A stretch of DNA of 32,000 bases from positions 2,280,001 through 2,312,000 of the forward strand of contig NZ_CP034549.1 in assembly GCF_003966335.1 (NCBI RefSeq), in the 5' to 3' direction. Below, piece by piece: positions 1,599 through 31,426 of this stretch (position 1 is its first letter; each line of letters opens with the position of its first letter). The position numbers were made by a program, and so were the translations under genes. A model generated the notes under the pieces. That model was given only the letters and a program-made list of their open reading frames with translations. It ran no database searches and was not told the origin of the DNA. Origin of the DNA: Nonlabens ponticola (GTDB lineage: Bacteria > Bacteroidota > Bacteroidia > Flavobacteriales > Flavobacteriaceae).

Positions 1599-3643
1599 TA
1601 ATCTAATTGATTTTTATAATACTCATAAGTGGCATATTGAGATCGAACTGCCTCTTTTTTATTTTGGACATATGCATTGCTTTGGTCCTGATCAATGACT
1701 CGCGCTTTAACGTTGTCGTTCCAGCATATATCCATCGTCTCAAGTATTTCATTCTTGATGTCCTTATCATATATAGGACATGCTATTTCTACACGACTGT
1801 CTAGGTTTCTAGGCATGAAATCGGCACTTGAAATATAGAGTTTGGTATCTCCATCATTGTGGAAATAATAAACTCTAGGATGTTCTAGGTAACGATCAAC
1901 TACACTTATTGCTGTGATGTTTTCGCTCATACCTTTGACACCAGGAACTAGACAACATATTCCTCTAACAATAAGCTCGATTTTTACACCTGCATTAGAG
2001 GCTTTGTAGAACAGATCGATCATTTGAAAGTCTGAAAACGAATTGAGTTTTAAACGTATATGTGCTTTTTTTCCTGCTTTCGCGAAAGCTATCTCACGAT
2101 TGACAGCTTGCGTTATTCCAGCCCTTAAATTATGTGGGCTTACCATCAAGTGCTTATAATTGTGCTGCTTATAATTCACTTCAAAAAATTGAAATACCTT
2201 CTCAACTTCCTTAAGAATCTTTTTATTGCAGGTGAATAAGGTGTAATCTGTGTAAATTCCTGCTGTTGACTCGTTGAAATTTCCTGTCGAAATAAAACCA
2301 TAGCGAGCAAGCTTCTTACCTTCTCTTCTCGTGACGACACATGCCTTACAATGTACTTTCAATCCAGGCACACCAAATATCATGGCAATACCTTCTTCCT
2401 GCATTAGCTCTGCATAATTGATATTTGCCTGCTCATCAAATCGAGCTTGCAGCTCTATGGATACCGTAACTCGTTTGTTATTACGGGCAGCATTTATCAA
2501 TGACCCAGCAATCTGAGAAACCTCAGCCAATCTATAGATGGTGATCTTTATTTCTTCCACCTGAGGATCTAGAGCAGCTTCTCGCAAGAATTTTGTGGTA
2601 TTGGCAAAGGTGTGATATGGTGCGTACTGCAAGATGTCCTTGTGAGCGATCTTCTTGAGCAATGACCCTTTAATATCTACATTCTTTATAGGTAATGGCG
2701 TTTGCTTTTCATAAAGCAAGTCGGTGCGTCCCAAACTAGGAAATTTCAAGTAATCACGCCTATTGTGATAACGACCGCTAGGAATTATGGAATCGGTATC
2801 ATCAATATCTAATTTTGACATGATCAGGTTGATGGTATCCTCATGAATAGTCCTGTCATAAACAAATCTTACTGGATCTCCATCTTTTCTATCATAAACG
2901 CTGTCTCGAATTTTTTCCAGCAAGCTCTTTTTTAAATCAAGATCAATATCAAGTTCAGCATCTAGGGTAACCTTAATCATGTGCGCCTCAATACTCGTGT
3001 AATCAAAAATGCTGAATAGGTAATGCATTCTATGACGTATCAAATCGTCAATGAGCATCACGTACTGCTTACCATCATTGATGTCTGGTAATGTTACAAA
3101 CCTATTAAGGTGTCTAGGCTTTTCAATCAATGCTAGTTTTGGTTCAGAATTTTCAAATTCCATACGCACTGCCAGATATCCCATTCCATCACGCAAGGGT
3201 GGCAAGTCAGCATCCTTATTTATCATAATCACTCCTAATGCTGGACTGATTTTCTCGTTAAAGTAATTTCTAATGTATGGCTCGTGTTCTTTGAGAACTT
3301 CAGTCTCATCGAGGATAATAATATTTTCTTTGCGCAGCTCTTCTTCTAGCTCATTAAGAATTTGGAAACTTAAGGTTTGATCCTCAATAACCATCTTATT
3401 GATTTCATTTAATAGATCGCCAGCGCTTATACCGCCTAGGGATTTGGTTGCATTTTTTCCCGCACGATAGATACGCTGTATGGTCGCATATCGCACCTTG
3501 AAAAACTCATCTAGATTATTAGAGAAAATCCCTAGAAATCGCAATCGTTCAATCAATGGAACACTAGGATCGTTTGCTTCCTGTAAAACACGCGCATTGA
3601 AACGCAACCAGCTCAACTCTCTATTATAATATTGTGGTGTCAT
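1598..3643 (-). CDS. ppk: Polyphosphate kinase 1
   Basis: 681 aa. N-terminus YYNRELSWLRFNARVLQEA and the overall length and architecture are classic PPK1. Confidence 0.95.
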   Translation of the reverse strand: MTPQYYNRELSWLRFNARVLQEANDPSVPLIERLRFLGIFSNNLDEFFKVRYATIQRIYRAGKNATKSLGGISAGDLLNEINKMVIEDQTLSFQILNELEEELRKENIIILDETEVLKEHEPYIRNYFNEKISPALGVIMINKDADLPPLRDGMGYLAVRMEFENSEPKLALIEKPRHLNRFVTLPDINDGKQYVMLIDDLIRHRMHYLFSIFDYTSIEAHMIKVTLDAELDIDLDLKKSLLEKIRDSVYDRKDGDPVRFVYDRTIHEDTINLIMSKLDIDDTDSIIPSGRYHNRRDYLKFPSLGRTDLLYEKQTPLPIKNVDIKGSLLKKIAHKDILQYAPYHTFANTTKFLREAALDPQVEEIKITIYRLAEVSQIAGSLINAARNNKRVTVSIELQARFDEQANINYAELMQEEGIAMIFGVPGLKVHCKACVVTRREGKKLARYGFISTGNFNESTAGIYTDYTLFTCNKKILKEVEKVFQFFEVNYKQHNYKHLMVSPHNLRAGITQAVNREIAFAKAGKKAHIRLKLNSFSDFQMIDLFYKASNAGVKIELIVRGICCLVPGVKGMSENITAISVVDRYLEHPRVYYFHNDGDTKLYISSADFMPRNLDSRVEIACPIYDKDIKNEILETMDICWNDNVKARVIDQDQSNAYVQNKKEAVRSQYATYEYYKNQLD
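2076..2089. repeat. Copy of the 14-bp palindrome GCTTTCGCGAAAGC, inside ppk
   Basis: Exact match. Read on the coding strand as GCT TTC GCG AAA GC, giving AFAK(A) in REIAFAKAGKK. Confidence 0.95.
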
Positions 3644-4125
3644 CGTATTTGTTTGGGGAATAAATGAAAAGCCGTTGTGCCTGATGTCAGGTCACTCCAT
3701 TTTGGGATATCAAAATCAATGACTACCACTCCTGTGGTAGGTACATTATCAAATCTGGTAGAACCATACTGATTGGCAAACTCAGTCAAGCCATGATTAT
3801 GAGAAAAAACGAGAAGCGTGTCAACCTCATTAGTCACTTCTTTAATAGCAACTGCTAGTTCATTGCTATCAAATGTGTAAAGGCTCCTGTTTAATTTTAA
3901 AGAACTTAGATTATAATCTAGATACTCAGTAACGATGGTTGCTGTTTGCAGTGCTCGTGCAGCTGGACTACTCATGATCAAGTCTGGCTTGAGGCTTGTT
4001 TTCAATAAAGCCTTACCTATTAAATGACCATCTTCAACGCCGCGCTGTTGTAGGACACGATCGTAATCACGCACATTAAGATCCCAAGAAGACTTGCCAT
4101 GACGTATGAGGATCAACTTCTTCAT
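3640..4125 (-). CDS. sixA: SixA-like histidine phosphatase superfamily protein
   Basis: LILIRHGKS (RHG catalytic motif) and a later SHNHG motif. I prefer the ATG at 4125 (MKKLILIRHG) because it forms an ATGA overlap with the pdxH stop. The ORF track's longer start at 4149 would overlap pdxH by 28 nt. The stop forms a second ATGA overlap with the ppk start at 3640-3643. Confidence 0.8.
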   Translation of the reverse strand: MKKLILIRHGKSSWDLNVRDYDRVLQQRGVEDGHLIGKALLKTSLKPDLIMSSPAARALQTATIVTEYLDYNLSSLKLNRSLYTFDSNELAVAIKEVTNEVDTLLVFSHNHGLTEFANQYGSTRFDNVPTTGVVVIDFDIPKWSDLTSGTTAFHLFPKQIR

Positions 4126-4772
4126 GGTGCCAATCTTTTTGCTTGCCATTGATTATCAACTTTTTCAAACAAGAATCTATCATGCAAACGATTGGGCCTA
4201 CCCTGCCAGAATTCATAACTCACAGCTTTACATTCATATCCACCCCAAAAATCTGGTCGTGGAACATCAGTTCCCTCAAACTTTTTAGTATAAAATTGTT
4301 CAAGCGTTTCTAATTCTTCCCGAGAGCTAATGACAGAGCTTTGATGACTTGTCCATGCTCCTAGCTGACTTCCTCGTGGCCTCGAGTTAAAGTAATTAAT
4401 GGACTGTTCATCTGGAACCTTGGCTGCCATGGCTTTTATAATAATCTGTCTCTCTAATGCGGGCCAGAAAAAATGGATAGCCACATGAGAGTTTGCATCA
4501 ATCGCTTGTGCCTTTTCAGAGGTGTAATTTGTGTAAAAAACAAAACTGTCTTCTTGTTTTTCTTTAAGCAGGACAATTCGTGATTTAGGAAAACCATCGT
4601 CGCCTATCGTTACTATACCCATGGCATTTGCTTCTTCTATCTGATCATTAGAACGAGTTTCTTCAAACCATCGCTCGAACAATTCATATGGCTTACCGGG
4701 TAAACTACTTTCTAGAAGCGCGCTTTTTTCATAGGATTTGCGCAATTCATTCAATTGTTTCTCCATGATCAA
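4122..4772 (-). CDS. pdxH: Pyridoxamine 5'-phosphate oxidase
   Basis: 216 aa. The motifs RIVLLKE, FVFYTNYTSEKA and EFWQGRPNRLHDR are characteristic of PdxH. The first codon is TTG and an ATG lies two codons in, so the exact start is uncertain. Confidence 0.9.
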   Translation of the reverse strand: MIMEKQLNELRKSYEKSALLESSLPGKPYELFERWFEETRSNDQIEEANAMGIVTIGDDGFPKSRIVLLKEKQEDSFVFYTNYTSEKAQAIDANSHVAIHFFWPALERQIIIKAMAAKVPDEQSINYFNSRPRGSQLGAWTSHQSSVISSREELETLEQFYTKKFEGTDVPRPDFWGGYECKAVSYEFWQGRPNRLHDRFLFEKVDNQWQAKRLAP

Positions 4773-4876
4773 TCTTTACTGCAATTTAAGGATTTGGCTT
4801 TACAATTATACCGCTTGCAGTAATAGCCTTTACTAGAAAAAGAAAGATGTTCTAGGGCAGTATTAGTCGGTATCTC

Positions 4877-4890
4877 GCTTTCGCGAAAGC
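4877..4890. repeat. Copy of the 14-bp palindrome GCTTTCGCGAAAGC, intergenic, upstream of pdxH
   Basis: Exact match, extended to the 16-bp palindrome CGCTTTCGCGAAAGCG. About 105 bp upstream of the pdxH start. Coordinates between 4741 and 5322 may be off by 1 (see noticed_but_rejected). Confidence 0.9.
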
Positions 4891-4940
4891 GGAATCAAGA
4901 AAAACAACTCTGCTATCGATTATCAGAAAACTCGAAAACT

Positions 4941-4972
4941 AAAAAAGCCTATCAAACAAGGTTTGATAGGCT
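4941..4972 (-). terminator. Intrinsic terminator of the tRNA-Ser/tRNA-Pro transcription unit
   Basis: 12-bp stem AGCCTATCAAAC / GTTTGATAGGCT with a 3-nt loop. On the minus strand it is followed by a T5 run. Lies about 28 nt downstream of the tRNA-Pro 3' end. Confidence 0.65.
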
Positions 4973-4999
4973 TTATGACTCAATCCATACAGATTTTTG

Positions 5000-5074
5000 T
5001 CGGGGTGGCAGGATTCGAACCTGCGACCTCCTCGTCCCAAACGAGGCGCGATGACCGGGCTACGCTACACCCCG
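5000..5074 (-). tRNA. tRNA-Pro (anticodon TGG)
   Basis: The reverse complement reads CGGGGTGTAGCGTAGCCCGGTCATCGCGCCTCGTTTGGGACGAGGAGGTCGCAGGTTCGAATCCTGCCACCCCGA. It folds as a cloverleaf with anticodon stem CCTCG/CGAGG, loop TTTGGGA and a GGTTCGAATCC T-arm. CCA is not encoded. Confidence 0.9.
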
Positions 5075-5149
5075 AATTTTATTATAATCAGTTCGGGTAC
5101 TGAGTGAGTCTTTTCTGGTTAAAAACTTCTTCCTGAAAAGGTCTCTTTG

Positions 5150-5233
5150 CGGAGAGACAGGGATTCGAACCCTGGCGACGGTTGCCCGTCGACAGATTAG
5201 CAATCTGCTCCATTACCACTCTGGCACCTCTCC
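5150..5233 (-). tRNA. tRNA-Ser (anticodon GCT), long variable arm
   Basis: The reverse complement reads GGAGAGGTGCCAGAGTGGTAATGGAGCAGATTGCTAATCTGTCGACGGGCAACCGTCGCCAGGGTTCGAATCCCTGTCTCTCCG. Anticodon loop TTGCTAA, long variable stem-loop CGACGG/CCGTCG, T-arm CAGGGTTCGAATCCCTG. Confidence 0.9.
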
Positions 5234-5273
5234 TAAATATTTAAAGAACTATGCTTATTTCTCAAAGCGGTTG

Positions 5274-5304
5274 CAAATGTAATCTATGTTTATGACCTGC
5301 CAAA
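5274..5304 (-). promoter_or_regulatory. Bacteroidota sigma-A type promoter for the tRNA operon (TTTG-N19-TAcaTTTG)
   Basis: On the minus strand, TTTG (5304-5301) is followed after 19 nt by TACATTTG (5281-5274). The box lies about 40 nt upstream of the tRNA-Ser 5' end. It matches the established -33 TTTG / -7 TAnnTTTG consensus of Bacteroides and Flavobacterium promoters. Confidence 0.5.
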
Positions 5305-5322
5305 CATAAATTTATCTTTTTT

Positions 5323-8673: not shown

Positions 8674-9429
8674 ATGAAATACGGCATTTGTCCCATTTCC
8701 CTTGCACCATTGCGTTTACAAGCTGCTGACGCTAGTGAGATGGTGTCGCAAGTACTTTACGGTGAGTTATTTAAAGTAATCGAACATCGCAAGAAGTGGT
8801 CTAGAATTAGACTACACCTAGATGGTTATGAAGGCTGGATCGACAACAAGCAATATCAAGAAATTGACTCTATAGATTACCATAAATTGATAGATGATAA
8901 TTTTGCTTTCGCGAAAGATCCCATCTCAATAGTCACTCATAGCGATGAAACATTAAGCACCTTAACCATAGGTGCACAAGTAAGCAGTGCTGCTTATTTC
9001 CAAGATTCTGTGGCTAATCAGCAATCTATTGATGAAGAAGATATTGCCAAATCAAATTTGATCAACACCGCACTCTTATTTTTAAATGCTCCTTATTTAT
9101 GGGGCGGCAAATCTCCATTGGGTGTAGATTGTAGTGGATTTACACAACTCGTCTATCGACTCAATGACTTTCATTTAAAGAGAGATGCAAGCGAGCAAGC
9201 AACTCAAGGAGAAGTTCTCAGTTTTATAGAAGAGTCAGAGCCTGGTGATCTTGCCTTTTTTGACAATGCCGATGGTGATATCACTCACGTAGGCATTATT
9301 ATGCAAGACAATCATATCATACATGCCCATGGCAAGGTGCGCATTGATAGACTAGATCAATCTGGTATATATAATGCTCAACTTAACACACATACCCATA
9401 AACTAAGAGTCATTAAAAAGATGATATAA
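8674..9429 (+). CDS. NlpC/P60 (C40) cell-wall peptidase with an N-terminal SH3-like domain
   Basis: Catalytic Cys context GVDCSGFTQLVY, His context ITHVGIIM and a later HAHG. The N-terminal half resembles bacterial SH3 domains. Confidence 0.85.
   Translation: MKYGICPISLAPLRLQAADASEMVSQVLYGELFKVIEHRKKWSRIRLHLDGYEGWIDNKQYQEIDSIDYHKLIDDNFAFAKDPISIVTHSDETLSTLTIGAQVSSAAYFQDSVANQQSIDEEDIAKSNLINTALLFLNAPYLWGGKSPLGVDCSGFTQLVYRLNDFHLKRDASEQATQGEVLSFIEESEPGDLAFFDNADGDITHVGIIMQDNHIIHAHGKVRIDRLDQSGIYNAQLNTHTHKLRVIKKMI
8905..8917. repeat. Near-perfect (13/14) copy of the palindrome, inside the NlpC/P60 gene
   Basis: GCTTTCGCGAAAG followed by A instead of C. Read in frame as GCT TTC GCG AAA GAT, giving AFAKD. 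Confidence 0.85.
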
Positions 9430-10678: not shown

Positions 10679-13198
10679 TTATTCTTCGCTGTCATCCTTT
10701 GCAAGGTCCGTACCACGATCTGTTAATTCGTCTGTTACTATGTCTGCTGCCTCGTCATCATCATCGTTTGCAACTTTCGCGACAGCGGCAATACTATCAT
10801 TTCCTTTGAGATTGATCAATCGTACACCTTGTGTCGCACGACCCATGACTCTCATGTCACTCACATCGATACGTATGGCAACTCCAGATTTGTTGATAAT
10901 CATAAGACCATCGCCGTCTTGGACGTTTTTAAGAGCAACCAGACCACCAGTTTTCTCAGTCACTGATATGGTTTTAACTCCTTTACCACCACGATTTGTT
11001 TCGCGATAATCTTCAAGACTGGATCGCTTACCATAACCTTTTTCAGAAACGACCAGGATATTTGATTCTGGATCATTCACGGCAACCATTCCTATCACCT
11101 CGTCATTATCATCTGCCAGTCTGATACCACGCACACCGCTGGCATTACGACCCATTGATCTAGTTTTCTTCTCATCAAAACGTATCGCTTTACCACTGCG
11201 TAATCCTAACATGATCTGGCTATCACCGGTTGTCAATTTTGCTTCTAGCAATGTATCGCCATCCTTGATGGTGATGGCATTGATACCATTGGTTCGTGGT
11301 CGAGAGTATTGCTCTAGTGACGTTTTCTTAACGGTACCTTTCTTAGTACACATAATCACATAATGAGAATTGATGTATTCCTCGTCCTTAATATCCTGCG
11401 TACAGATCACAGCTTTCACGCTATCGTCCGGCTCAATGTTGATCAAGTTTTGAATAGCTCGTCCTTTAGAAGTTCGGCTACCTTCTGGTATTTCATAAAC
11501 CCGCATCCAGAAACACTTTCCTTTCTCTGTAAAGAAGAGCATGTACTGGTGATTAGTTCCCACAAAAATATCTTCAAGGAAATCTTCATCACGTGTGGTA
11601 CTCGCCTTTTGACCTACACCACCGCGATTTTGGGTCTTATATTCGGTAAGACTTGTTCTTTTAATATAACCAGCATGCGAGATAGTAATGACAACTTGCT
11701 CATCTGGAATCATATCTTCAATGCTCAAATCACCACCAGCGTACTCAATCTGCGAGCGACGCTCATCGCCATACTTCTCACGTACCTCTTCTAGTTCTTC
11801 CTTGATGATCGCCATACGACGCTCCTTTTTGTCGAGGATATCTTTGAGATCAGCAATGGTTTTGATAAGCTCGTCATACTCGCTGCGCAGTTTATCCTGC
11901 TCAAGACCTGTCAATTGTCTTAAACGCATCTCAACGATCGCTCGTGCTTGAATTTCAGATAGATCAAATCGCTCGATTAATTTCTCACGAGCTTCTTCAC
12001 CATTTGAACTAGCACGTATGAGCTTAATTACCTCATCGATATTATCACTGGCAATGATCAATCCTTCTAGGATATGGGCGCGCTCTTCTGCCTTGCGCAA
12101 CTCATAAGTCGTACGTCTTACAACGACTTCATGTCTATGTTCCACAAAATGGTGGATCATATCTTTAACATTGAGCATCTCAGGACGACCGTTTACTAGC
12201 GCAATATTATTAACGCTAAACGACGATTGCAGCGCAGTATGCTTGTACAGTTTATTGATGACGATGTTAGGAATCGCATCACGTTTCAAAACGTAAACGA
12301 TGCGCATTCCCTTTCTATCAGACTCATCACGTATGGATGAGATACCTTCTAGCTTCTTATCATTAATAAGGTCTGCCGTTTTCTTAATCATATCTGCCTT
12401 ATTGACTTGATATGGCAGTTCATCTACAAGAATACACTCGCGACCTTTAACCTCTTCAATTCTTACACGACCGCGTATCTTGACACGACCGCGACCTGTA
12501 TGCATGGCATCCTTTACACCATCATAACCATAGATAATACCACCAGTAGGAAAATCTGGAGCCTTGATATGCTGGATCAATTCATCGATCTCAATATCAT
12601 TATTATCGATGTAAGCGATAGTTCCATCCACGACCTCAGTCAAATTGTGTGGTGGCATATTAGTCGCCATACCTACCGCTATACCGCTGGCGCCGTTGAC
12701 TAGTAGATTAGGAATTTTAGTTGGAAGAACAGTTGGTTCAGATAACGTGTCGTCAAAATTGAGTTGCGTATCAACTGTTTCCTTATCAATATCCGCAAGC
12801 ATCTCTTCAGATATTTTGCGCATTCTAGCCTCTGTATAACGCATGGCAGCTGGTGGATCACCATCTACACTACCAAAGTTTCCCTGACCATCAACGAGCA
12901 TGTAGCGCAACGACCATTCCTGGGCCATACGCACCATGGTGTCATAGACTGATGTATCACCATGCGGGTGATATTTACCCAGTACCTCACCTACAATTCT
13001 CGCACTCTTTTTATATCCACGATTAGACAGTACGCCCAGCTCATACATTCCATAAAGGACACGTCTGTGCACAGGCTTGAGACCATCTCGCACATCTGGC
13101 AGTGCTCGTGACACTATGACCGACATCGAGTAATCGATGTAGGCTGATTTCATCTCATCCTCAATATTGATTGGGATTAACTTTTCTCCATCTGCCAT
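10679..13198 (-). CDS. gyrA: DNA gyrase subunit A
   Basis: 839 aa. Contains [27 protein letters not shown] and the active-site region AAMRYTE. C-terminal beta-pinwheel repeats are followed by an acidic tail. Confidence 0.97.
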
Positions 13199-13371
13199 TT
13201 AAAATCTTCTTTAGTTACCTTAAAAATTAACAACTAGCAATTTAATGAAATCACTATATATAATAAGGACTTTGGGCGATTTACACGTTGTTTTTATTAA
13301 CACTTTGCACCTGTTCTTGTGGATAAGTTGTGATGCTCTCAAATCGTTGTTATAATGTGTGTTTTGATTAC

Positions 13372-13385
13372 GCTTTCGCGAAAGC
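13372..13385. repeat. Copy of the 14-bp palindrome, in the gyrA/clpC divergent intergenic region
   Basis: Exact match, extended to the 18-bp palindrome ACGCTTTCGCGAAAGCGT (13370-13387). Ends 80 bp before the clpC-like ATG at 13465 (motif start 93 bp upstream). Confidence 0.95.
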
Positions 13386-16173: not shown

Positions 16174-16181
16174 TAATTTTG
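16174..16181 (+). promoter_or_regulatory. Candidate -7 box TAatTTTG for the tandem paralogue pair
   Basis: Exact TAnnTTTG match ending 24 nt before the ATG at 16206. No clear -33 TTTG was found. Confidence 0.35.
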
Positions 16182-16205
16182 TGTCAGTTATGTAAAAATA
16201 CTGTC

Positions 16206-16598
16206 ATGAAACTATTAGAATTAGAATTTGGTACATTCCTATTAGATGATAACTATGTTATTGGCGAGATCAATGAGGGCGTGCATGTGGACCTTCAGAT
16301 CAATGCAATTATAGACAACTTGATACGTGAACATTATGGCAATCAACCTATAGGTTATATAAGTAGACGTATCAATGATTACAGTGTTGATCCTCTAGTT
16401 CATCAATCAAATCTTGAGAATAGTATTATTCAAACCTTTGCCGTAGTAGATGGAAAAAAAGAGGATCCTGCTGTTTATGAAAGTGAGACCCGATTCCTAG
16501 ATTCTGATCAAGTGCGATTCTTTTCTAAGACCAGACAAGCTATCGCCTGGACACGCACTACAAGTCGTTTTCCTATTGACGTCGCTCAACTTAATTAG
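16206..16598 (+). CDS. Hypothetical protein, paralogue A (130 aa from MKLLELEFG)
   Basis: Open frame. It aligns by eye along its N-terminal ~85 aa with the next gene (MKLxxLEFGxFxLxDxYVxGEIxEGVHxD...GYISxRxxxYSVDPLVH). The start was moved to the ATG at 16206 so that it matches the paralogue's N-terminus. Confidence 0.7.
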   Translation: MKLLELEFGTFLLDDNYVIGEINEGVHVDLQINAIIDNLIREHYGNQPIGYISRRINDYSVDPLVHQSNLENSIIQTFAVVDGKKEDPAVYESETRFLDSDQVRFFSKTRQAIAWTRTTSRFPIDVAQLN

Positions 16599-16631: not shown

Positions 16632-17024
16632 ATGAAATTAATACACTTAGAATTCGGAAGATTCGAGCTTCACGATCATTATGTAGTAGGTGAAATTTTT
16701 GAGGGTGTACATTTTGACCATGACCTCAATCAAATAGTAAAAGATCTTGCTATGGAAAATTATGGCCCCATTAAAAAAGTAGGCTACATAAGTGTGAGGC
16801 GTCATAATTATAGTGTTGATCCATTGGTGCATTTTGAGAATAAACGCTTCCAAATACTCAATAGTGTGGCCGTGGTAAATGTTAGAGAAAACTCTAGACC
16901 TACTCACGATATCGAGGCATGTTTTTACTGGAAGAATAGATTAAAAGGCTTTGATGATCAACAAGTAGCACTTAACTGGACGCAAAGAATGCTAGATCAA
17001 TCACAAAAAACATTGCTTAATTAG
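16632..17024 (+). CDS. Hypothetical protein, paralogue B (130 aa)
   Basis: Tandem paralogue of the preceding gene, 33 bp downstream. Same length, and both end in LN. Confidence 0.7.
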   Translation: MKLIHLEFGRFELHDHYVVGEIFEGVHFDHDLNQIVKDLAMENYGPIKKVGYISVRRHNYSVDPLVHFENKRFQILNSVAVVNVRENSRPTHDIEACFYWKNRLKGFDDQQVALNWTQRMLDQSQKTLLN

Positions 17025-17072: not shown

Positions 17073-18602
17073 CTAGGAGTTACTAGCCTCAGGATTTCTA
17101 AATAGTTGTAGGATCGCTGCGCCTATGAAGTTAGAAATCAAGCTTGCCTTCAAGCCTTCATGAGCATAACTCTGCGCCACTAGGTCACCTGCCGCACCAT
17201 GAATGTACACGCCAAAAACTGCTGCCATTAACGGCTCATAACCTTGAGCGATAAGGCTGGAAATCATACCTGCCAGCACGTCACCACTACCAGCCGTCGC
17301 CATTCCTGGATTACCAGAATCATTTATGTACACGTGATCACCAGATACTGTCATCGTGTGAGCGCCTTTTAACACCAGTATTACATCATATTTTTTAGAA
17401 AGTTCTTTGGCTTTTTCAAGTCGCTCCGTACTGTTATTCCACTTACCGACCAATCTTTCTAATTCACCATCATGCGGTGTTAAAATGGATTGTGCTGGGA
17501 CTTCCTTTAAGAATGCTCGCTTGTTGGCCAATATATTGAGTCCATCGGCGTCTATGACTATGGGTGATGATTGATATTTTATAGCTTTCGCGAAAGCTGA
17601 AACAGTAACGTCATCCTGCCCTATACCTGGTCCAATACACATCACATAATCTTTAACAGGAATCCTGATGTCACTTAAAGCATGGTCATCATCGTCCAAC
17701 AATGTCATTACCTCTGGCAAGCTAGTCTGCATAATGATATCGCCATCATTTGGGATATAAGCCGTGACCTTACCAGCACCAGCATTAATGGCAGCACCAG
17801 CACACAGTACCGCAGCACCCATGGTGCTTTCATGACCAGCGACACAAACAACATGACCGTAATCTCCTTTATGGGTGAATTTCTTTCTAGGCTTATAAAT
17901 GTTTTGTGCAGCTTCTCTAGTTATCAACGTAGCAATAGGTTGCGCCTGATTGATATATGCCGGATCCAATCCTATATCGATGACTTCAAAAGTCCCAACA
18001 AAATCACCTGTATCTACCTGAAAAAAGCTCAGTTTGGGAGTTTGAAAAGTGAACGTGTGATCTGCCTTGATAATCGCAGAGTTTTCTGGTTGTGCTGTAT
18101 CTGCCAATAGACCGCTGGGCATATCGACCGCTACGGTAAATGCTTGGGTGGCGTTGATGGCTTCAAATAAATCTGCCATCCATCCATCAACTGGCCTGTT
18201 GAGTCCAGTGCCAAAAATCGCGTCAACAACAATATCGCCATTATCAATAGCAGGAATGTCATCCTTACAATCTAGAAGTATCGGCCAATCTTTAGTAATA
18301 TCTTTAATACGTTCATAATTCTTAAGAAAATCATCTGATCTATGCTTGCTACAATTTGTAATGTAGGTGGTTACATGATATCCATGTTGTATCATATGCC
18401 TTGCTATAGCAAGACCATCACCACCATTATTCCCAATACCACAAAATATTTTAATAGGTACGGGTGCGCCATTAAGTCGCTGATGCATGCGCTCAAAAAC
18501 TAATTGCGCAACGCGCTCCATGAGTTCATCGCTGGTAATGTTTTGCGATTTGAGTGTGGCTTGATCTGCTTGAGCTAATTGCTGTGCACTTAATATTTTC
18601 AA
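17073..18602 (-). CDS. nnr: Bifunctional NAD(P)H-hydrate repair enzyme (epimerase plus ADP-dependent dehydratase)
   Basis: YjeF N-terminal motif GIGNNGGDGLA. C-terminal carbohydrate-kinase-like domain with TAGSGDVLAG. 509 aa. Confidence 0.9.
   Translation of the reverse strand: MKILSAQQLAQADQATLKSQNITSDELMERVAQLVFERMHQRLNGAPVPIKIFCGIGNNGGDGLAIARHMIQHGYHVTTYITNCSKHRSDDFLKNYERIKDITKDWPILLDCKDDIPAIDNGDIVVDAIFGTGLNRPVDGWMADLFEAINATQAFTVAVDMPSGLLADTAQPENSAIIKADHTFTFQTPKLSFFQVDTGDFVGTFEVIDIGLDPAYINQAQPIATLITREAAQNIYKPRKKFTHKGDYGHVVCVAGHESTMGAAVLCAGAAINAGAGKVTAYIPNDGDIIMQTSLPEVMTLLDDDDHALSDIRIPVKDYVMCIGPGIGQDDVTVSAFAKAIKYQSSPIVIDADGLNILANKRAFLKEVPAQSILTPHDGELERLVGKWNNSTERLEKAKELSKKYDVILVLKGAHTMTVSGDHVYINDSGNPGMATAGSGDVLAGMISSLIAQGYEPLMAAVFGVYIHGAAGDLVAQSYAHEGLKASLISNFIGAAILQLFRNPEASNS
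17584..17597. repeat. Copy of the 14-bp palindrome, inside nnr
   Basis: Exact match (AGCTTTCGCGAAAGCT with one extra palindromic base each side). Read as AFAKA in VSAFAKAIKY. Confidence 0.95.
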
Positions 18603-22916: not shown

Positions 22917-23759
22917 TTATGGCAACCATTTATCACTGCCAAAGTCAGGTTTGCGCTTCTGTAAAAATGCATCTCGACCTTCCTTTGCCTCGTCAGTCAT
23001 GTAGATAAGCCTGGTCATCTCGCCAGCAAACACTTGCTGTCCTACCATTCCATCATCCACGGCATTCATGGCAAACTTTGCCATCTTGATCGCGGTAGGT
23101 GATTTTTCCATGATTTCCTGTGCCCAGTCATAAGCTGTTTGATCTAACTCATCGTGTGGAACCACGGCGTTGACCATACCCATTTCCATGGCTTCTTGTG
23201 CATTGTAATTGCAGCCTAAAAAGAAAATCTCTCTCGCTTTCTTCTGTCCTACCATTTTTGCTAGGTAGGCACTACCATAACCAGCATCGACGCTCGCGAC
23301 ATCAAGGTCAGTTTGCTTAAATATGGCGTGTTCTTTACTAGCAATTGTCATATCACATACTACGTGCAGACTGTGTCCACCACCTACTGCCCAACCAGGC
23401 ACAGCACAAATCACAACTTTGGGCATGAACCGTATCATGCGTTGCACCTCAAGGATATTCAATCTACCAGTACCAGCGCTATCCTTGTAACCATCCTTAC
23501 CACGAGCATTCTGGTCACCACCACTGCAAAATGCCCAGCCACCATCCTTAGGACTGGGACCTTCACCAGTCAAAATGACCACACCTATGGATAGGTCCTC
23601 TTGCGCATCATAAAAAGCGTCAATAAGCTCGCTTACCGTTTGCGGGCGGAAGGCGTTGCGCACCTCTGGTCTATTGAACGCGATGCGCGCGACGCCATTG
23701 GCTTTTTTGTAGGTAAGGTCTTTGTATTCCTTGGCTGTTTTCCAGTCGATAACACTCAT
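22917..23759 (-). CDS. menB: 1,4-dihydroxy-2-naphthoyl-CoA synthase
   Basis: 280 aa crotonase fold. VARIAFNRPEVRNAF, AFCSGGDQ and the C-terminal KRKPDF are typical of MenB. Confidence 0.95.
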   Translation of the reverse strand: MSVIDWKTAKEYKDLTYKKANGVARIAFNRPEVRNAFRPQTVSELIDAFYDAQEDLSIGVVILTGEGPSPKDGGWAFCSGGDQNARGKDGYKDSAGTGRLNILEVQRMIRFMPKVVICAVPGWAVGGGHSLHVVCDMTIASKEHAIFKQTDLDVASVDAGYGSAYLAKMVGQKKAREIFFLGCNYNAQEAMEMGMVNAVVPHDELDQTAYDWAQEIMEKSPTAIKMAKFAMNAVDDGMVGQQVFAGEMTRLIYMTDEAKEGRDAFLQKRKPDFGSDKWLP

Positions 23760-24099: not shown

Positions 24100-24113
24100 G
24101 CTTTCGCGAAAGC
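24100..24113. repeat. Copy of the 14-bp palindrome, in a divergent intergenic region
   Basis: Exact match (TTACGCTTTCGCGAAAGC, sharing the TTAC left flank with the 13372 copy). 34 bp upstream of the 91-aa gene start and 84 bp from the ATG at 24197. Confidence 0.95.
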
Positions 24114-24196: not shown

Positions 24197-24598
24197 ATGG
24201 CACAGGAAAAGAAACCAGACGCAATTGTATTTGACGAAGAAAGTGGCACCTATAATGCCGCATTGTTACCGTATGCCAGCGGTGTAGGCGCACCCAAAAT
24301 CACAACGCCAGACATCACTTCCTGGAAGCAAAACAATATAAATAAAGTCAATCACGAGATCAAATCGCAGTTTGACCAACTAAAGGCGCAATATGACGCC
24401 ATGGTGAAAAAATATGAGGACAATCAAGTGGTCTATGGTGCCAAATTCTCTTTTGAACCCATAGTTGGCGAGACCTATCATCTATATCGAGGCCGCAAGA
24501 ATGATTTCCTATCTGTGATTTCACCATCCGAGTGTACCTGGGAACACATAGGTAGTTACCGCTTGTCCAGCGAGAAATTGTGGGTAGAAATAGACTAG
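24197..24598 (+). CDS. Hypothetical protein (133 aa)
   Basis: Open frame with an ATG start and coding-like composition. No motif I can name with confidence. Confidence 0.6.
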   Translation: MAQEKKPDAIVFDEESGTYNAALLPYASGVGAPKITTPDITSWKQNNINKVNHEIKSQFDQLKAQYDAMVKKYEDNQVVYGAKFSFEPIVGETYHLYRGRKNDFLSVISPSECTWEHIGSYRLSSEKLWVEID

Positions 24599-24638
24599 TA
24601 TTCAGTATTCAGTATTCAGTATTCAGTATTCAGTATTC
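24597..24638. repeat. Perfect heptanucleotide tandem repeat (AGTATTC) x6
   Basis: Six exact contiguous units counted directly. The first unit begins inside the TAG stop codon (24596-24598) of the 133-aa gene. Confidence 0.97.
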
Positions 24639-24835
24639 AAGAAAAATCTTTTTAAGTGAATATGCATCTTATGTTAAGCTTCAATTTGAATACATCAAGT
24701 TTACTTGACTTGCTTCAAAGTTTGAACCACTTGTTTCCCTTGAGGGAAATGTCGAAGACAATGGGTGTTTTTTCAGTATTCATGTTTTGGTTCAAGACAT
24801 CAAATTCAGCTTACGTTTCTTTCTAGCACGTTTAT

Positions 24836-27202: not shown

Positions 27203-27316
27203 ATGAAAGCTTCAACAACATTACACGAGACAAGAGAATTGATCAACAAGAGATTCCGTCCAGAGCGTACGTTCTCAGAGAATTGGAATACTCGTAGAAG
27301 ATATAGATTGGCTTAA
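27203..27316 (+). CDS. Candidate small basic protein (37 aa), MKASTTLHETRELINKRFRPERTFSENWNTRRRYRLA
   Basis: ATG-initiated ORF found by hand, below the ORF-track size cutoff. It is the only ORF in a 340-bp gap and is followed by a strong terminator. There is no homology evidence, so it could equally be part of a non-coding RNA. Confidence 0.3.
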   Translation: MKASTTLHETRELINKRFRPERTFSENWNTRRRYRLA

Positions 27317-27361
27317 ACCATGTTTATCTTCAAGATCATTCAAATGATCAACTTTCGTTAG

Positions 27362-27396
27362 AATCCTTTGTTACACTGACAAAGGATTTTTTTATT
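27362..27396 (+). terminator. Strong intrinsic terminator
   Basis: Perfect 10-bp stem AATCCTTTGT / ACAAAGGATT, 7-nt loop, then TTTTTATT. Confidence 0.75.
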
Positions 27397-27426
27397 GCTT
27401 TTAACTTGACTATTAGAGGATACGAG

Positions 27427-27434
27427 TACTTTTG
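27427..27434 (+). promoter_or_regulatory. Candidate -7 box TActTTTG for the PQQ-dehydrogenase/cytochrome c operon
   Basis: Exact TAnnTTTG match ending 15 nt before the ATG at 27450. A TTG lies 18 nt upstream of the box. Confidence 0.4.
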
Positions 27435-27449
27435 TTAAAACACTTTATC

Positions 27450-28646
27450 ATGAAGCATTTACCTCTAGTTGCCGCACTCGCTGCGCTACTTATTACTTCC
27501 TGTAAATCGGAACTAGAAAGTCGCGAGATCATAGCTTTAGAAGACTCACAGGACAGCACTTTCACGGCGACTGACGTCAATCAACGCGTACCAGATGTTT
27601 CTGATGTTGTACTTATCGATGATCAGGAAGATTATACCATCACACCTATCGTCGAGGATTTAAGCGTTCCTTGGGGTATGGATTGGCTACCTAACGGTGA
27701 TTTGCTTTACACAGAAAAACAAGGTGATCTCTACAGGTTTGACGGCACCACTTCTCATAAAATTGCAAACGTTCCTGAAGTTTATGTACGTGGTCAAGGC
27801 GGTTTGCTAGATGTCATTGTTCATCCGGACTTTTTTGCTAATAACACGATCTATATTTCTTATGCGAGCCAAGAAGGCGCTGGTTCTGGTGGTCATACCG
27901 CAATAGCGTCTGCTGTTCTTGACAGCGATCGATTGACTAATCTTAAAGTGCTCTACAAAGGAACTCCTAATACTACCAGAGGTCAGCACTTTGGAAGCAG
28001 ATTTGCCTTTGGCGATGATGGCAAGCTTTATTTTTCAATTGGTGAGCGTGGTGATCGCGATACAAACCCACAGGATATAACTCGTGATGGCGGTAAGATC
28101 TATCGTATAAATGATGATGGCAGTATTCCTGATGATAATCCGTTTGTCGACGCAACCGGTGCTAAAACAGCAATTTATACCTACGGTAATCGCAATCCAC
28201 AAGGTTTGTTGAGGCATCCAGTTACGGGCGAGATTATTGCTAACGAACATGGCCCTAAAGGCGGTGACGAGATTAATTACATCAAGAAAGGTGTGAACTA
28301 CGGCTGGCCTGTGATAAGTTATGGTATCAACTATGACGGCTCAGAATTTACCGACATTACTCAAAAGGAAGGAATGGCTCAACCTTTTTTCTATTGGGAT
28401 CCTAGTATTGCTCCATCAGGATTTGCAGTGATTGATAATGACTCCTATCGCGACTGGAATGGTAATTTTCTGGTAGGCAGTCTCAAGTTTCAATATCTAG
28501 AAATGCTTTATTTTGATGAAGATGGTGTAACAAAAAGAGAGAAGCTAGTGGATGGTATCGGTCGTTTACGCAATGTCAAGATGAGTCCCGATGGTGAGAT
28601 CTACATAGGTGTTGAAGGAAAAGGAATTTATAAAATTACTAGATGA
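27450..28646 (+). CDS. PQQ-dependent sugar (glucose/sorbosone) dehydrogenase family lipoprotein
   Basis: Lipoprotein signal MKHLPLVAALAALLITSC. Beta-propeller GSDH-family motifs PWGMDWLPNGDLLYTEKQG, GGLLDV, NRNPQGL, EHGPKGGDEIN and NYGWP. The start was moved to the ATG at 27450. Confidence 0.85.
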   Translation: MKHLPLVAALAALLITSCKSELESREIIALEDSQDSTFTATDVNQRVPDVSDVVLIDDQEDYTITPIVEDLSVPWGMDWLPNGDLLYTEKQGDLYRFDGTTSHKIANVPEVYVRGQGGLLDVIVHPDFFANNTIYISYASQEGAGSGGHTAIASAVLDSDRLTNLKVLYKGTPNTTRGQHFGSRFAFGDDGKLYFSIGERGDRDTNPQDITRDGGKIYRINDDGSIPDDNPFVDATGAKTAIYTYGNRNPQGLLRHPVTGEIIANEHGPKGGDEINYIKKGVNYGWPVISYGINYDGSEFTDITQKEGMAQPFFYWDPSIAPSGFAVIDNDSYRDWNGNFLVGSLKFQYLEMLYFDEDGVTKREKLVDGIGRLRNVKMSPDGEIYIGVEGKGIYKITR

Positions 28647-29089
28647 GAAACTTTTTTACCGTGAGCGCAATATGCGTGATTCTATTAATTAGCTGTAATA
28701 CAGCAAAAGATGAATCTGATAAGATAACTTCTCAAAAAGAAATAAAACAAACACCTCAAGACCCATTGAAGCAGAGTGTTGCACGCGGTCGCGAAATCTA
28801 CATGGAATTGTGTGCGACTTGCCATTTACCTAGCGGCAAAGGAGTCTCAGGAGCGTTTCCACCGCTTCATCCATCAGACTGGTTGACAGATAAACGTACG
28901 GAAAGTATTCACGCAGTCAAGTATGGATTGAAAGGTGAGATCATAGTCAACGGTCAACCTTACAATAATATCATGTTACCATTAGGATTGAGTGATGATG
29001 AAGTGCGCGATGTCATGAATTTCACCATCCAAACCTGGAATGAAGGAGAAATGGTAACGCTGGAAGAAGTTCAAGCGGTCACCAAGTAG
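28643..29089 (+). CDS. Class I c-type cytochrome (membrane-anchored or lipoprotein)
   Basis: Heme-binding CATCH with the distal ligand context NIMLPLG. N-terminal signal or anchor. The ATG overlaps the upstream stop (ATGA at 28643-28646). Confidence 0.85.
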   Translation: MRNFFTVSAICVILLISCNTAKDESDKITSQKEIKQTPQDPLKQSVARGREIYMELCATCHLPSGKGVSGAFPPLHPSDWLTDKRTESIHAVKYGLKGEIIVNGQPYNNIMLPLGLSDDEVRDVMNFTIQTWNEGEMVTLEEVQAVTK

Positions 29090-29304
29090 TATGCATGTGC
29101 GGTATGCGGTAAATTATAATAGCTGGCATAAAAGCAAAAACTTCTTTCTCTCACTAACTAGTCCTTTGACTAGCGTTGCCCTCATCACATAGAAATCACT
29201 GTTTCTGGAATATGTTTAGAAATAGGCATTTCAGCTCTGCCGTCACTTTAGAATTATCTTGATGTAGAAACATACTGTGATGTGTGTTTCGCTATAAAAC
29301 AACG

Positions 29305-29335
29305 CAAAAAAGCCCGAATAAATCGGGCTTCTTTG
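29305..29335 (-). terminator. Intrinsic terminator of the 112-aa gene
   Basis: Stem AAGCCCGA (29310-29317) / TCGGGCTT (29323-29330). On the minus strand it is followed by a T6 run. Confidence 0.65.
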
Positions 29336-29352
29336 ATATCTGTTACATACGA

Positions 29353-29691
29353 CTACTCGTACACTTTCTCCTTACCGTGGTGCTTACATAACATGTAGTA
29401 AATTACCGCTCGGTACTTTTTATTATTGCTCTTACCGTATTTCTCTACAACGGCCTCTACAGAATCCATTAGATTGTCTCCAGACAAACCTAGCTTTTTC
29501 TTCAAATAATTGTCTACTACACGTTGCATCTCAGATTTCTCCGCGCTAATTGTTTCGGCATCTTGCTTGTAAATTGATGGACCTAGACCTTGCGTTACTT
29601 TTCTCAATAATCCTACATCTAGATCATCTCCTACATTAGTTTTATAAGCATCTATGTACTTACCAACTTTTTCGTCTAATTTGCTACTCAT
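29353..29691 (-). CDS. Conserved-looking hypothetical protein (112 aa)
   Basis: Open frame with an ATG start and its own terminator. Helical, Lys-rich sequence. No function can be assigned from sequence alone. Confidence 0.65.
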   Translation of the reverse strand: MSSKLDEKVGKYIDAYKTNVGDDLDVGLLRKVTQGLGPSIYKQDAETISAEKSEMQRVVDNYLKKKLGLSGDNLMDSVEAVVEKYGKSNNKKYRAVIYYMLCKHHGKEKVYE

Positions 29692-29755
29692 AATAAATCG
29701 GGTTTTTGCTTGATTAATTACCTAAAAATAAAGAAAATACCATAGAATCAAAACT

Positions 29756-31426
29756 TTATTTGAGGTATTGGAAATACTTTAAGAGTATCTCATCATTGAC
29801 GGTACGTGGTGTGAATATTTCAAGCAACTGTGGTCGATTGTTGCAGGATGATAGTGATTTGTAAGCTTTCGCGAAAGCTAACTCATTATCAACACTATGG
29901 TAGTCAAGTCCATGCATGTCACACAATTGCCTCGCAGTAAGCTGGTGCACCGTTTCAAAATAAGTATTGAAGTAATCCTCGTTTTTCTCACCTGGCAAAA
30001 TTCTAAAAATGCCGCCACCACTATTATTAATGACGATAATTTTCATGTCTCGCGGTATGTAGTTATTCCATAGAGCGTTTGAATCGTAAAAAAAGCTCAA
30101 ATCTCCTGTGATTAAAAAGGTCCTATTCTTAACAGCTGTTGCCGCACCTATGGCTGTACTGGTACTACCATCGATACCACTCGTACCGCGATTTGAAAAT
30201 ACCGTATGACTTGCATTCATTGGAAAAAGCTGTGCATACCTGATGGTGCTGCTATTACCCAATTGCAAAGTGATATCGTCAGGTAGCGCATTGAATAAAA
30301 GTTCAAAAACCTTAAGATCACTCCACGGTATCTGTGCCAGATAATCAGGGCGCTTACTCAAATATGTGCGGAATTTGCCTAACCACTGCTGCTGGTAGTC
30401 ACTAGAAATAGTATTCTCTGGTAATTTATGAATCCACTCACTAGGAGCTATCTTGATGTGTGCGGCTAGTTTGAAGAAGGTATCGTAAGCACGACGACGA
30501 CCTATATGATAATGTATCCTCGTCTCAAACCTGCGCAAATACTGTTTAACCTTTTTGCTCACGATCATGCCTCCTATGGTAATCACAAGGTCTGGTTGTA
30601 GCGCAGCAATCTCACCATCGTCAAATTCTATAGGCGCGATAAGTGTATCAATTCCCCAAACCAGCTTATCATGTACCACGTTGCTACTTACCTCACTCAT
30701 AACGAGAACGCTAGGATCTGCCGTAAGTTTATCTAAATCTTCTTTTGTAAACACTGGTGGATTTAAGGTAGAAAGTATTACTAGTTTGCGGCTGGCACTA
30801 CTCCACTGTTCATAAAATTCATCTGGAATAACCGTACGTTCCTGCTTGAGAACGTCCATTACTTTTACATCAAGATTATAATCCTTTATCGTATTATAAA
30901 GCGGTTCCTCAAATGGCACATTGATATGCACTGGACCGTATTTTGACAAGCAATTATTGAGAGCTCTATTGATTTTTCGCTCGTTTGTCACAAGATGTTC
31001 TTGATTGCTGGGATCGTTGATGATCTCTAGTTGCGTGTCATAAATGATGTGTTTGCCGTAAACGTTCTTTTGCTGGATAGTCTGCCCATCACCTATATCA
31101 ATTTTATGCGGTGGCCTATCGGCGCTTAAAATAATGAGTTGAATCTCACTGTAATAAGCCTCTGCAACTGCTGGGTAATAATTGAGTAATGCGCTACCGC
31201 TGGTGCATAAACAAGCCACTAGCTCTTGCAGCTGTTGAGCAATACCTAAAGCAAAATGTGCAGCGCAGCGCTCGTCAACAATACTGTAACAGGTGAAAAA
31301 ATCATCTGATGTAAAACCTATCGTTAGCGGCGCGTTGCGAGATCCAGGTGATATCACGATGTGCTTGACGCCACGTTTCTTGAATAATAAGAGAATTTGT
31401 TGGGCGTGCGGTATGCTAGTAGTCAT
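29756..31426 (-). CDS. menD: 2-succinyl-5-enolpyruvyl-6-hydroxy-3-cyclohexene-1-carboxylate (SEPHCHC) synthase
   Basis: 556 aa ThDP enzyme. N-terminal ISPGSRNAPL, and a ThDP-binding region GTSGIDGSTSTAIGAA...GDLSFFYDSNAL...NNSGGGIF. Confidence 0.93.
   Translation of the reverse strand: MTTSIPHAQQILLLFKKRGVKHIVISPGSRNAPLTIGFTSDDFFTCYSIVDERCAAHFALGIAQQLQELVACLCTSGSALLNYYPAVAEAYYSEIQLIILSADRPPHKIDIGDGQTIQQKNVYGKHIIYDTQLEIINDPSNQEHLVTNERKINRALNNCLSKYGPVHINVPFEEPLYNTIKDYNLDVKVMDVLKQERTVIPDEFYEQWSSASRKLVILSTLNPPVFTKEDLDKLTADPSVLVMSEVSSNVVHDKLVWGIDTLIAPIEFDDGEIAALQPDLVITIGGMIVSKKVKQYLRRFETRIHYHIGRRRAYDTFFKLAAHIKIAPSEWIHKLPENTISSDYQQQWLGKFRTYLSKRPDYLAQIPWSDLKVFELLFNALPDDITLQLGNSSTIRYAQLFPMNASHTVFSNRGTSGIDGSTSTAIGAATAVKNRTFLITGDLSFFYDSNALWNNYIPRDMKIIVINNSGGGIFRILPGEKNEDYFNTYFETVHQLTARQLCDMHGLDYHSVDNELAFAKAYKSLSSCNNRPQLLEIFTPRTVNDEILLKYFQYLK
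29865..29878. repeat. Copy of the 14-bp palindrome, inside menD
   Basis: Exact match (AGCTTTCGCGAAAGCT). Read as AFAKA in NELAFAKAYKSL. Confidence 0.95.

Follow-up and report, generated by a model that had tools for sequence, protein, structure and literature searches.

The question raised by a 32-kb stretch of the Nonlabens ponticola chromosome (NZ_CP034549.1, positions 2,280,001 to 2,312,000; the whole of this stretch is called the window below) is why a single 14-bp perfect palindrome, GCTTTCGCGAAAGC, should occur in it six times in exact form. The word is apparently a so far undescribed counterpart of HIP1, the highly iterated palindrome 1 found in cyanobacteria, and of bacterial DNA-uptake sequences. 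The answer that we favour, if tentatively, is that it is a selected, lineage-specific genome tag used in DNA exchange or recombination. Searches of 8 million full texts, directed at the 14-mer, at its 10-bp core and at any iterated palindrome reported from flavobacteria, Nonlabens or Dokdonia, returned nothing relevant.

A pattern search located all six exact copies and the one 13/14 copy (GCTTTCGCGAAAGA) at the coordinates listed in the initial annotation of the window, and the host genes named there (ppk1, an NlpC/P60 gene, nnr and menD, in addition to intergenic copies) proved to be correctly assigned. Our analysis adds a 12/14 copy at 10773 (ACTTTCGCGACAGC), the even spacing of the sites, their conservation across genera and the reading frame Ala-Phe-Ala-Lys-Ala (AFAKA) shared by genic copies. 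The sites in the window are as follows.

2076..2089, exact copy, in ppk1 (1598-3643, minus strand), read Ala-Phe-Ala-Lys-Ala; the ppk gene of locus L243 has an exact copy at the same position.
4877..4890, exact copy, intergenic, following a pair of tRNA genes, 110 bp downstream of one of them (5000-5074, minus strand) and 105 bp upstream of the pdxH start (4772).
8905..8918, 13/14 copy, in a gene for an NlpC/P60-type hydrolase (8674-9429, plus strand), read AFAKD.
10773..10786, 12/14 copy, in the part of gyrA (10679-13198, minus strand) encoding the C-terminal tail; the coding strand has GCTGTCGCGAAAGT, read AVAKV.
13372..13385, exact copy, in the divergent spacer that separates gyrA from a ClpB/ClpC-type ATPase gene; the copy is upstream of both, 80 bp from the start of the ATPase gene and 174 bp from that of gyrA.
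17584..17597, exact copy, in nnr (17073-18602, minus strand), read AFAKA; L242 has an exact copy at the same codons.
24100..24113, exact copy, intergenic, between menB (22917-23759, minus strand) and a DUF2452 gene (24197-24598, plus strand), 84 bp upstream of the latter.
29865..29878, exact copy, in menD (29756-31426, minus strand), read AFAKA, where the protein is weakly conserved near its C-terminus.

The copy at 13372 extends to an 18-bp palindrome, ACGCTTTCGCGAAAGCGT, and all seven occurrences of the 10-mer TTTCGCGAAA in the window fall within GCTTTCGCGAAAGC sites. The window has a G+C content of 37-43%, and the MenD that it encodes is 100% identical to MenD of N. ponticola, which lies on a contig of 2,872,100 bp. 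In 100 dinucleotide-preserving shuffles of it, a mean of 0.10 matches was found at ≤2 mismatches, and none of the 100 reached the observed eight. Markov models of order 0-4 trained on the window predicted 3e-5 to 2e-4 exact copies per 32 kb. The excess over chance is more than 1e4-fold.

The word is similarly frequent outside the window. For a sample chosen blind to the word, we combined the window with eight Nonlabens and Dokdonia loci around menD or gyrA, fetched via their proteins (locus L277 was identified as Dokdonia by its GyrA). These nine loci contain 32 exact copies in 203 kb, that is, 1 per 6.3 kb in two genera, which shows that the window is not a statistical fluke and makes the initial expectation of hundreds of copies per genome a fair extrapolation. 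In 1.07 Mb of other Flavobacteriaceae (77 gyrA-linked contigs), there was no exact and no one-mismatch copy, two- and three-mismatch copies were at chance level, and a search of these 77 loci for an alternative repeated ("dialect") palindrome found none. A scan of a collection with one genome per species (596 Gb) returned at least 120 8-kb blocks with GCTTTCGCGAAAGC. Among the 120 matches listed, 24 blocks belonged to Nonlabens (including strain BBFL7), 33 to Dokdonia, 28 to low-GC Flavobacteriaceae or "bacterium" metagenome-assembled genomes (MAGs, taxonomy as deposited), 6 were single or ambiguous matches in other flavobacterial genera, and 29 were singletons scattered over other phyla. Nonlabens, Dokdonia and low-GC MAGs together account for 85 of the 120, many of them with 2-3 copies per 8 kb; by our own arithmetic, about 2,200 chance matches are expected over the whole collection. 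The matches listed also spread widely along single chromosomes: those of Dokdonia sp. R86516 lie at 0.88, 1.38, 2.15 and 2.82 Mb, and those of BBFL7 likewise come from across its chromosome.

The Nonlabens/Dokdonia loci (a subset of L002-L123, and the window) differ from other Flavobacteriaceae (L244-L321) in further words counted outside the palindrome. The observed/expected ratio of TTCGAA is 0.21 vs 0.75, that of TCCGGA is 0.32 vs 1.05, and the NCGAA/TTCGN words are all 2-5-fold rarer. CGAA/TTCG, which is contained in the palindrome, is the most depleted 4-mer in these loci. Possible causes are restriction systems, codon usage and the avoidance of near-cognate sites. The TCGCGA/CGCG core outside the word is neither avoided nor enriched (observed/expected about 0.8-0.9, similar to the controls) and gives no signal of restriction avoidance.

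Many sites are conserved in place. The menD copy occurs at the same codons, in exact form, in N. dokdonensis (L121, 69% protein identity) and in L122 (75%), and as a 13/14 copy in L123 (57%). The four third-codon positions that fall within the word do not differ among the four taxa, against a third-position identity of 0.30-0.49 in the flanks. At the protein level, AFAKA or AFAEA is present in MenD of all Nonlabens and not in that of the outgroups, in an otherwise variable stretch with zero indels. The site upstream of gyrA is exact at the corresponding place in L242, L243, L277, L322 and L323, which represent both Nonlabens and Dokdonia, and the menB/DUF2452 copy is exact at the corresponding place in L122 and not in L123. 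Four further orthologous pairs with a common site position were found among 150 sampled copies. Since the synonymous sites around the shared sites are saturated, the conservation acts at the DNA level. The identical 12/14 variant GCTGTCGCGAAAGT was seen at the matching gyrA position in Dokdonia L277 (12413-12426), again in the acidic C-terminal tail of GyrA; this copy could represent a weak site, or conservation of the protein could have produced it by coincidence.

Conservation is accompanied by site turnover. The NlpC/P60 site, a 13/14 copy in the window, is exact at or near the same place in Dokdonia L277 and L322; in L242 and L243, the position that reads AFAKD in the window reads YYAKD/YYSKD with zero indels, and L242 has a new copy about 540 bp off, in the spacer beside the NlpC/P60 gene. 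The site at 4877 has no counterpart in L242 and L243; in L123, the orthologous tRNA-Pro gene is followed by a copy in a similar location, with flanks that cannot be aligned. The comparisons with orthologues indicate that the sites arise by substitution and not by insertion. This bears on the idea that the copies derive, as remnants or miniature forms, from a family of mobile repeats, such as miniature inverted-repeat transposable elements (MITEs), repetitive extragenic palindromes or bacterial interspersed mosaic elements (REP/BIME), or the Rickettsia-type in-frame palindromic element. Their high number, palindromy and in-frame genic copies would suit such a family. However, there is no length change against orthologues without the word, target duplications are lacking, there is neither a conserved body nor complementarity of the arms beyond 2 nt, and site positions are conserved between genera. 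We regard this origin as scarcely credible; the early view that the word is not a MITE or REP element is borne out by the zero indels against orthologues and by the 65% of copies that lie inside genes.

To define the site itself, we used the 149 of the 150 sampled copies that had full flanks. The palindrome extends symmetrically by C at -1 and G at +14 (each in 118 of 149 copies), further symmetric bases being T at -3 and -4 and A at +16 and +17, with A at -5 in about half of the copies. The consensus is about 24 bp long, approximately ATTMC-GCTTTCGCGAAAGC-GKAAT. Beyond it, each 5' flank, read on its own strand, departs from background composition over about 25 nt, the background level being regained by about 30 nt: C falls to 0.08 (background 0.19), G rises to 0.24-0.28 (background 0.19) and T to 0.41-0.43 (background 0.31). 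The description of the site as a bare word with unconserved flanks therefore holds in that there is no conserved sequence body, but not for the flanks as such, which have a symmetric consensus to about 24 bp and a strong compositional skew to about 25-30 nt.

The flank skew is seen both in spacers and in genic copies, whatever their frame; in the latter it affects the side upstream of the word as well as the side downstream, with respect to the gene. Both sides are skewed at 103 sites, one side at 59 and neither at 6, with left and right uncorrelated. A one-sided replication or transcription skew can be ruled out, as both flanks are skewed at most sites independently of gene direction. A period-3 flank motif of the DnaA-trio type was likewise rejected, because the periodicity stems from codons and is only weakly seen in spacers. 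Beyond 2 nt, the two flanking arms of one copy match each other no better than arms taken from different copies do, and the 14-mer folds only weakly (-2.1 kcal/mol as DNA); the flank pattern is thus a consensus and not a stem, and a long hairpin or cruciform is ruled out.

The unit is the whole palindrome. Its half-site GCTTTCG was counted 392 times on both strands, of which 338 come from full sites, with about 60 expected; isolated 7-8-nt halves are at the level set by composition, which rules out a half-site (Chi-like) unit. Moreover, exact, one-mismatch and two-mismatch copies number 169 : 17 : 18 in 810 kb of clade loci, so that exact copies dominate one-mismatch copies by about 10:1, and the mismatches are mostly at the two outer positions of the word. 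The commonest decay, seen in 8 of 35 variant copies, is C-to-T at position 2, which amounts to G-to-A at position 13, and the variant ATTTTCGCGAAAGC was seen four times among the clade copies with one or two mismatches. This decay may hint at a methylated cytosine or at a weaker constraint on the outer bases.

With ORFs called mechanically, 65% of the copies lie fully inside ORFs, and the enrichment in spacers is 3.2-fold (P = 2e-17). All three frames occur among genic copies, the AFAKA frame being favoured 68:28:29; the two other frames and the 35% of non-genic copies rule out a peptide motif. Of the copies in spacers, 23 lie between tandem, 14 between divergent and 10 between convergent genes, and their distance from start codons ranges from 10 to 289 bp. 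A set of operators forming a regulon is ruled out, since the downstream genes are housekeeping genes unrelated to one another. An Rfam scan of the window identified two tRNAs only and gave no match at the sites.

It is very unlikely, on this evidence, that the word serves a global transcription factor as operator, or that it acts as an RNA hairpin (a terminator, stabiliser or Rho-entry element) in transcripts of either strand. The enrichment in spacers, which hold 35% of the sites, the position of several window sites 80-105 bp upstream of starts, and the G-poor, C/A-rich 3' flanks with their faint resemblance to a Rho-utilisation region could be taken to favour it. They are set against the 65% of sites in ORFs, the occurrence in convergent and tandem as well as divergent spacers at widely varying distances from starts, the housekeeping functions and dissimilarity of the downstream genes, and a weak hairpin whose flanks are unpaired beyond 2 nt and which is followed by no T-run.

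The sites avoid each other and are evenly spaced. We performed a hazard analysis on 8-kb blocks (91 blocks selected for containing the word) and on long loci. The hazard of meeting a next site was nil over the first 500 bp (exposure, 77 kb) and amounted to about 0.03-0.05 per kb for distances of up to 1.5 kb. Up to that distance there were 5 events, compared to about 42 expected at the mean rate, and the hazard then climbed steadily with distance. In seven word-blind loci, the 22 gaps had a mean of 5.0 kb, a coefficient of variation of 0.40 and a minimum of 2358 bp; under random placement, such a low coefficient of variation occurred in 1e-4 of simulations and such a large minimum gap never. 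For the window alone, even spacing gave P ~0.003-0.005. The block analysis is the more independent test, because the seven loci share some orthologous sites. The rare close pairs often bracket exactly one gene (L322 18125/18712, L002 2261/3562, L029 1086/2181, L111 3067/4859); the bracketed gene is the housekeeping gene pgk in L002 and, in Dokdonia L322, a 174-aa unannotated ORF where Nonlabens has tRNA genes. Integron-like cassettes between such pairs were considered, but housekeeping genes such as pgk are among the bracketed genes.

Phage DNA gave a divided picture. Several IMG/VR contigs with HK97-type head genes (portal, capsid, connector and prohead protease) carry 2-3 copies per 12-14 kb, a density like that of the host, with flanks of the lineage type, and at least one of these contigs comes from an isolate genome and is therefore a prophage. 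The cultured Nonlabens phages P12024S and P12024L (~35.7 kb each) contain no copy at ≤2 mismatches, where about 5-6 would be expected at host density. From the copies in prophages and their lack in these phages we conclude that the word belongs to DNA resident in chromosomes and not to any DNA replicating in these cells. The HK97-like (pro)phages form a family (L212 with copies at 191, 6705 and 11185, L237, L240, L209 and L176) with a 405-aa portal, a 435-aa capsid and ~780-aa proteins; its palindromes are at conserved places, including the inside of an HNH endonuclease gene and the gene between portal and capsid.

These results also bear on a functionless origin, in which a sequence-specific methyltransferase together with very-short-patch-type repair, or some other biased conversion, would regenerate the word as a by-product. 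The same idea has been raised for HIP1 (PMC4390886), the commonest decay is the C-to-T change at position 2, and the depletion of CGAA/TTCG words and of TTCGAA outside the word hints at sequence-specific DNA chemistry in the lineage. Nevertheless, such an origin is unlikely. The sites are kept across genera amid saturated synonymous sites, which is the argument of Xu et al. for selection on HIP1 (PMC5861425); no known repair system has a specificity of 14-24 bp; regeneration predicts neither even spacing nor mutual avoidance; and the cultured phages, although they replicate in Nonlabens, carry no copy.

To summarize, the reality of the word, its lineage restriction, its conservation at the DNA level, its origin by substitution and its even spacing are established, and so are the dominance of exact copies, the lack of independent half-sites, the flank asymmetry and the absence of a regulon. 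On these data, the word is neither a fluke nor a mobile repeat or peptide motif, and a structured RNA, a terminator and a regulon operator are excluded as well. The evidence points to a site in duplex DNA that would be recognized, with near-digital specificity, by a reader of twofold symmetry. Two of the classes proposed in the initial annotation have survived these tests, namely an uptake-signal-like word and a site array for a dimeric protein.

If the word is a tag for DNA exchange, the 14-mer would be the core of a twofold-symmetric recognition site of about 24 bp, which the Nonlabens/Dokdonia lineage would maintain by selection, or by a selection-like drive, on the DNA itself at about 1 per 5-6 kb. 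The tag would be placed evenly along the chromosome and its resident prophages, in and between genes, and would act neither as an operator nor as an RNA element or mobile repeat. A putative symmetric, probably homodimeric, protein would read it as duplex DNA. The tag would mark DNA of the own lineage for uptake, recombinational processing or both, as has been proposed for uptake signal sequences (USS) and lately for HIP1. The G/T-rich, C-poor 5' flanks may matter in that these strands, as single-stranded tails, would have their 3' ends at the site. G/T-richness is the composition that RecA prefers, and it is also a product of the deamination of exposed strands; either may have shaped the flanks. 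In its more specific form, the proposal is of a DNA self-recognition system in which a homodimeric reader channels DNA tagged with the 24-bp site into uptake and/or recombination, with 3' single-stranded tails ending at the tag. This remains speculative; such tails would explain the G/T-rich, C-poor 5' flanks on both strands.

Several points weigh against a role in DNA exchange. We know of no competence, uptake bias or reader protein in Nonlabens or Dokdonia. Known uptake sequences are asymmetric 9-12-mers with a density of ~1 per kb, whereas the word described here is a perfect palindrome of 14-16 bp with ~1 per 6 kb. A chromosome-architecture protein would be equally compatible with the even spacing and the palindromy, the flank skew could be due to direct protein contacts, and the contrast between prophages and phages is compatible with any function tied to long residence in a chromosome. 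In addition, the genome total of ~400-600 sites (~450 in N. ponticola) is an estimate extrapolated from locus density, and the orthologous loci are few and partly overlapping, so that the counts for conservation and spacing are not fully independent. A precedent in favour of the exchange reading is natural competence in the Flavobacteriaceae, known there for Riemerella only (PMC7965970).

The most serious competitor is a chromosome-wide array of sites at which a dimeric nucleoid, segregation or occlusion protein is loaded or anchored every 4-6 kb, modelled on the Noc-binding sites (NBS), RacA ram sites, SlmA-binding sites (SBS) or ParB parS sites, or on the role in nucleoid structure proposed for HIP1. 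This is a real possibility, though less probable in our view than a tag for exchange. It would account for a unit that is the whole perfect palindrome of 14-16 bp, for sites that are evenly spaced over whole chromosomes, conserved in place and tied to no regulon, for a footprint-like flank preference of ~60 bp in all, and for the occurrence of the word in resident prophages and not in cultured lytic-type phages; for HIP1, Xu et al. indeed arrived at the nucleoid-structure interpretation (PMC5861425). However, the arrays of this kind known to us consist of tens of sites, are regionally restricted and tolerate mismatches, as opposed to an estimated 400-600 sites here with exact copies ~10-fold over one-mismatch copies, and we know of no candidate protein. 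The ParB/Noc-like factor suggested in the initial annotation is disfavoured, as the half-sites are spaced as TTTC-N2-GAAA and not N4, which is not the binding mode of parS or NBS (4 bp), and as the estimated number of sites is an order of magnitude above that of any ParB/Noc-type array known to us. We weakly prefer exchange or recombination to architecture, because exact copies dominate, because the copy number is of the class of uptake sequences, Chi and HIP1 and not of Noc, RacA or SlmA arrays, and because the flank asymmetry has, on both sides, the geometry of single-stranded tails that end 3' at the site.

Some other features of the window and its orthologous loci were noted. A perfect DnaA box, TTATCCACA, is located at 13318-13326 (minus strand) in the spacer between gyrA and the Clp-ATPase gene, ~45 bp from the palindrome; its context CTGTGGATAAGTT is kept in L242 and L243 and partly in Dokdonia L277, and one DnaA box per window is at chance level (32 of 100 shuffles). 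Directly after the DUF2452 gene, at 24597-24639, there is a perfect 7-bp tandem repeat (AGTATTC, 6.1 units). Two adjacent small ORFs at 16179-16598 and 16632-17024 (139 and 130 aa) are evident paralogues that share the motifs ...LEFG.F.L.D.YV.GEI.EGVH.D... and ...GYIS.R...YSVDPLVH...; in the Dokdonia loci, small ORFs resembling this pair come after the Clp-ATPase gene.

Hyper-abundant words such as USS and the DNA uptake sequences (DUS), Chi, the FtsK orienting polar sequences (KOPS) and HIP1 have each led to a machine that reads a whole chromosome, and we know of no such word in the Bacteroidota. If the favoured interpretation is correct, the palindrome would represent the first uptake- or Chi-like system in this phylum, the first that is based on a long perfect palindrome, and an independent parallel to HIP1 that could help settle the 30-year-old question of HIP1 function. 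The 24-mer ATTACGCTTTCGCGAAAGCGTAAT as bait for pulldown, and phylogenetic profiling of the two word-bearing genera against close word-free relatives, offer a handle for finding the reader, which could show whether abundant marine flavobacteria exchange DNA by transformation. The word is also a strong taxonomic marker, applicable to the binning of Nonlabens/Dokdonia contigs and to the distinction of resident prophage from foreign phage DNA, and it may improve genetic tools for these proteorhodopsin model organisms.

Among known systems, HIP1 (GCGATCGC) of cyanobacteria is the most similar. Both words are perfect palindromes, hyper-abundant in and between genes and conserved at orthologous positions, with no peptide, RNA or regulon role and with a non-random, regular chromosomal distribution. 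The word described here exceeds, in and between ORFs, the 15-fold over-representation that marks HIP1-type palindromes, and its conservation goes beyond neutral expectation. The word is an analogue of HIP1 and not a member, because it is a different word of different length in a different phylum. It is almost twice as long (14-16-bp core, ~24-bp consensus) and ~5-fold less dense, and its sites show local mutual avoidance with gaps of 4-6 kb, whereas HIP1 has a period of 10-90 kb. HIP1 has the cognate orphan methyltransferases DmtA/DmtC in cyanobacteria; we know of no cognate methyltransferase for the word described here, and keto-rich 5' flanks are not known to have been reported for HIP1. The function of HIP1 is debated: it was found to be selected and periodic and was interpreted as an element of nucleoid structure (PMC5861425), while it also boosts natural transformation, with a Chi-like component, which speaks for uptake or recombination (10.1101/2024.09.10.611283; 10.64898/2026.06.24.733823).

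The word resembles the USS of Pasteurellaceae and the DUS of Neisseriaceae in several respects: near-exact copies run to hundreds (the total being extrapolated) and are confined to related genera; ~65% of them are in ORFs, with a frame bias and where the protein is poorly conserved; base preferences extend into the flanks; the spacing is comparable to the length of recombination tracts; and foreign DNA lacks the word (PMC2817400, PMC2397512). The habits of USS in proteomes have been described (PMC2817400), and the spacing of DUS equals the size of conversion tracts (PMC2397512). Our data agree in the lineage-limited abundance and in coding as well as non-coding copies, with a frame bias at poorly conserved positions. 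USS and DUS differ in being asymmetric, shorter and ~5 times denser, and both competence and biased uptake have been demonstrated for the bacteria that carry them. Since uptake bias is their defining trait and our word is known from sequence alone, we do not file it as an uptake sequence.

The sites of dimeric proteins (Noc NBS, RacA ram, SlmA SBS, MatP matS and ParB parS) number 10-100, are regionally restricted and degenerate. They resemble the word as palindromes of 12-16 bp scattered over a chromosome, and their half-site contains TTTC, as in parS and NBS; the difference is in the estimated 400-600 sites genome-wide, almost all of them exact, and in the inner spacing of 2 bp vs 4 bp. In particular, the TTTC-N2-GAAA geometry, the hundreds of sites and the blocks from across the Dokdonia and BBFL7 chromosomes do not agree with a ParB/Noc system. 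REP/BIME elements also reach a few hundred copies per genome, but REPs are extragenic, imperfect palindromes that are inserted or duplicated, and the copies found here are neither extragenic insertions nor endowed with a conserved body. An operator set would require a promoter-linked, coherent set of genes, which the copies do not have. Chi occurs in E. coli at ~1 per 4.5 kb, which is a similar density, and a G/T-rich strand ending 3' at the site would recall the Chi/RecA-loading geometry; Chi, however, is a short asymmetric word that is read on single-stranded DNA with an orientation bias, whereas for a palindrome such a bias is undefinable, and isolated halves are at composition level. Compared with all of these systems, the combination of a perfect palindrome of 14-16 bp, regular spacing of 5-6 kb and strand-asymmetric flanks is unusual and distinguishes the word of Nonlabens and Dokdonia.

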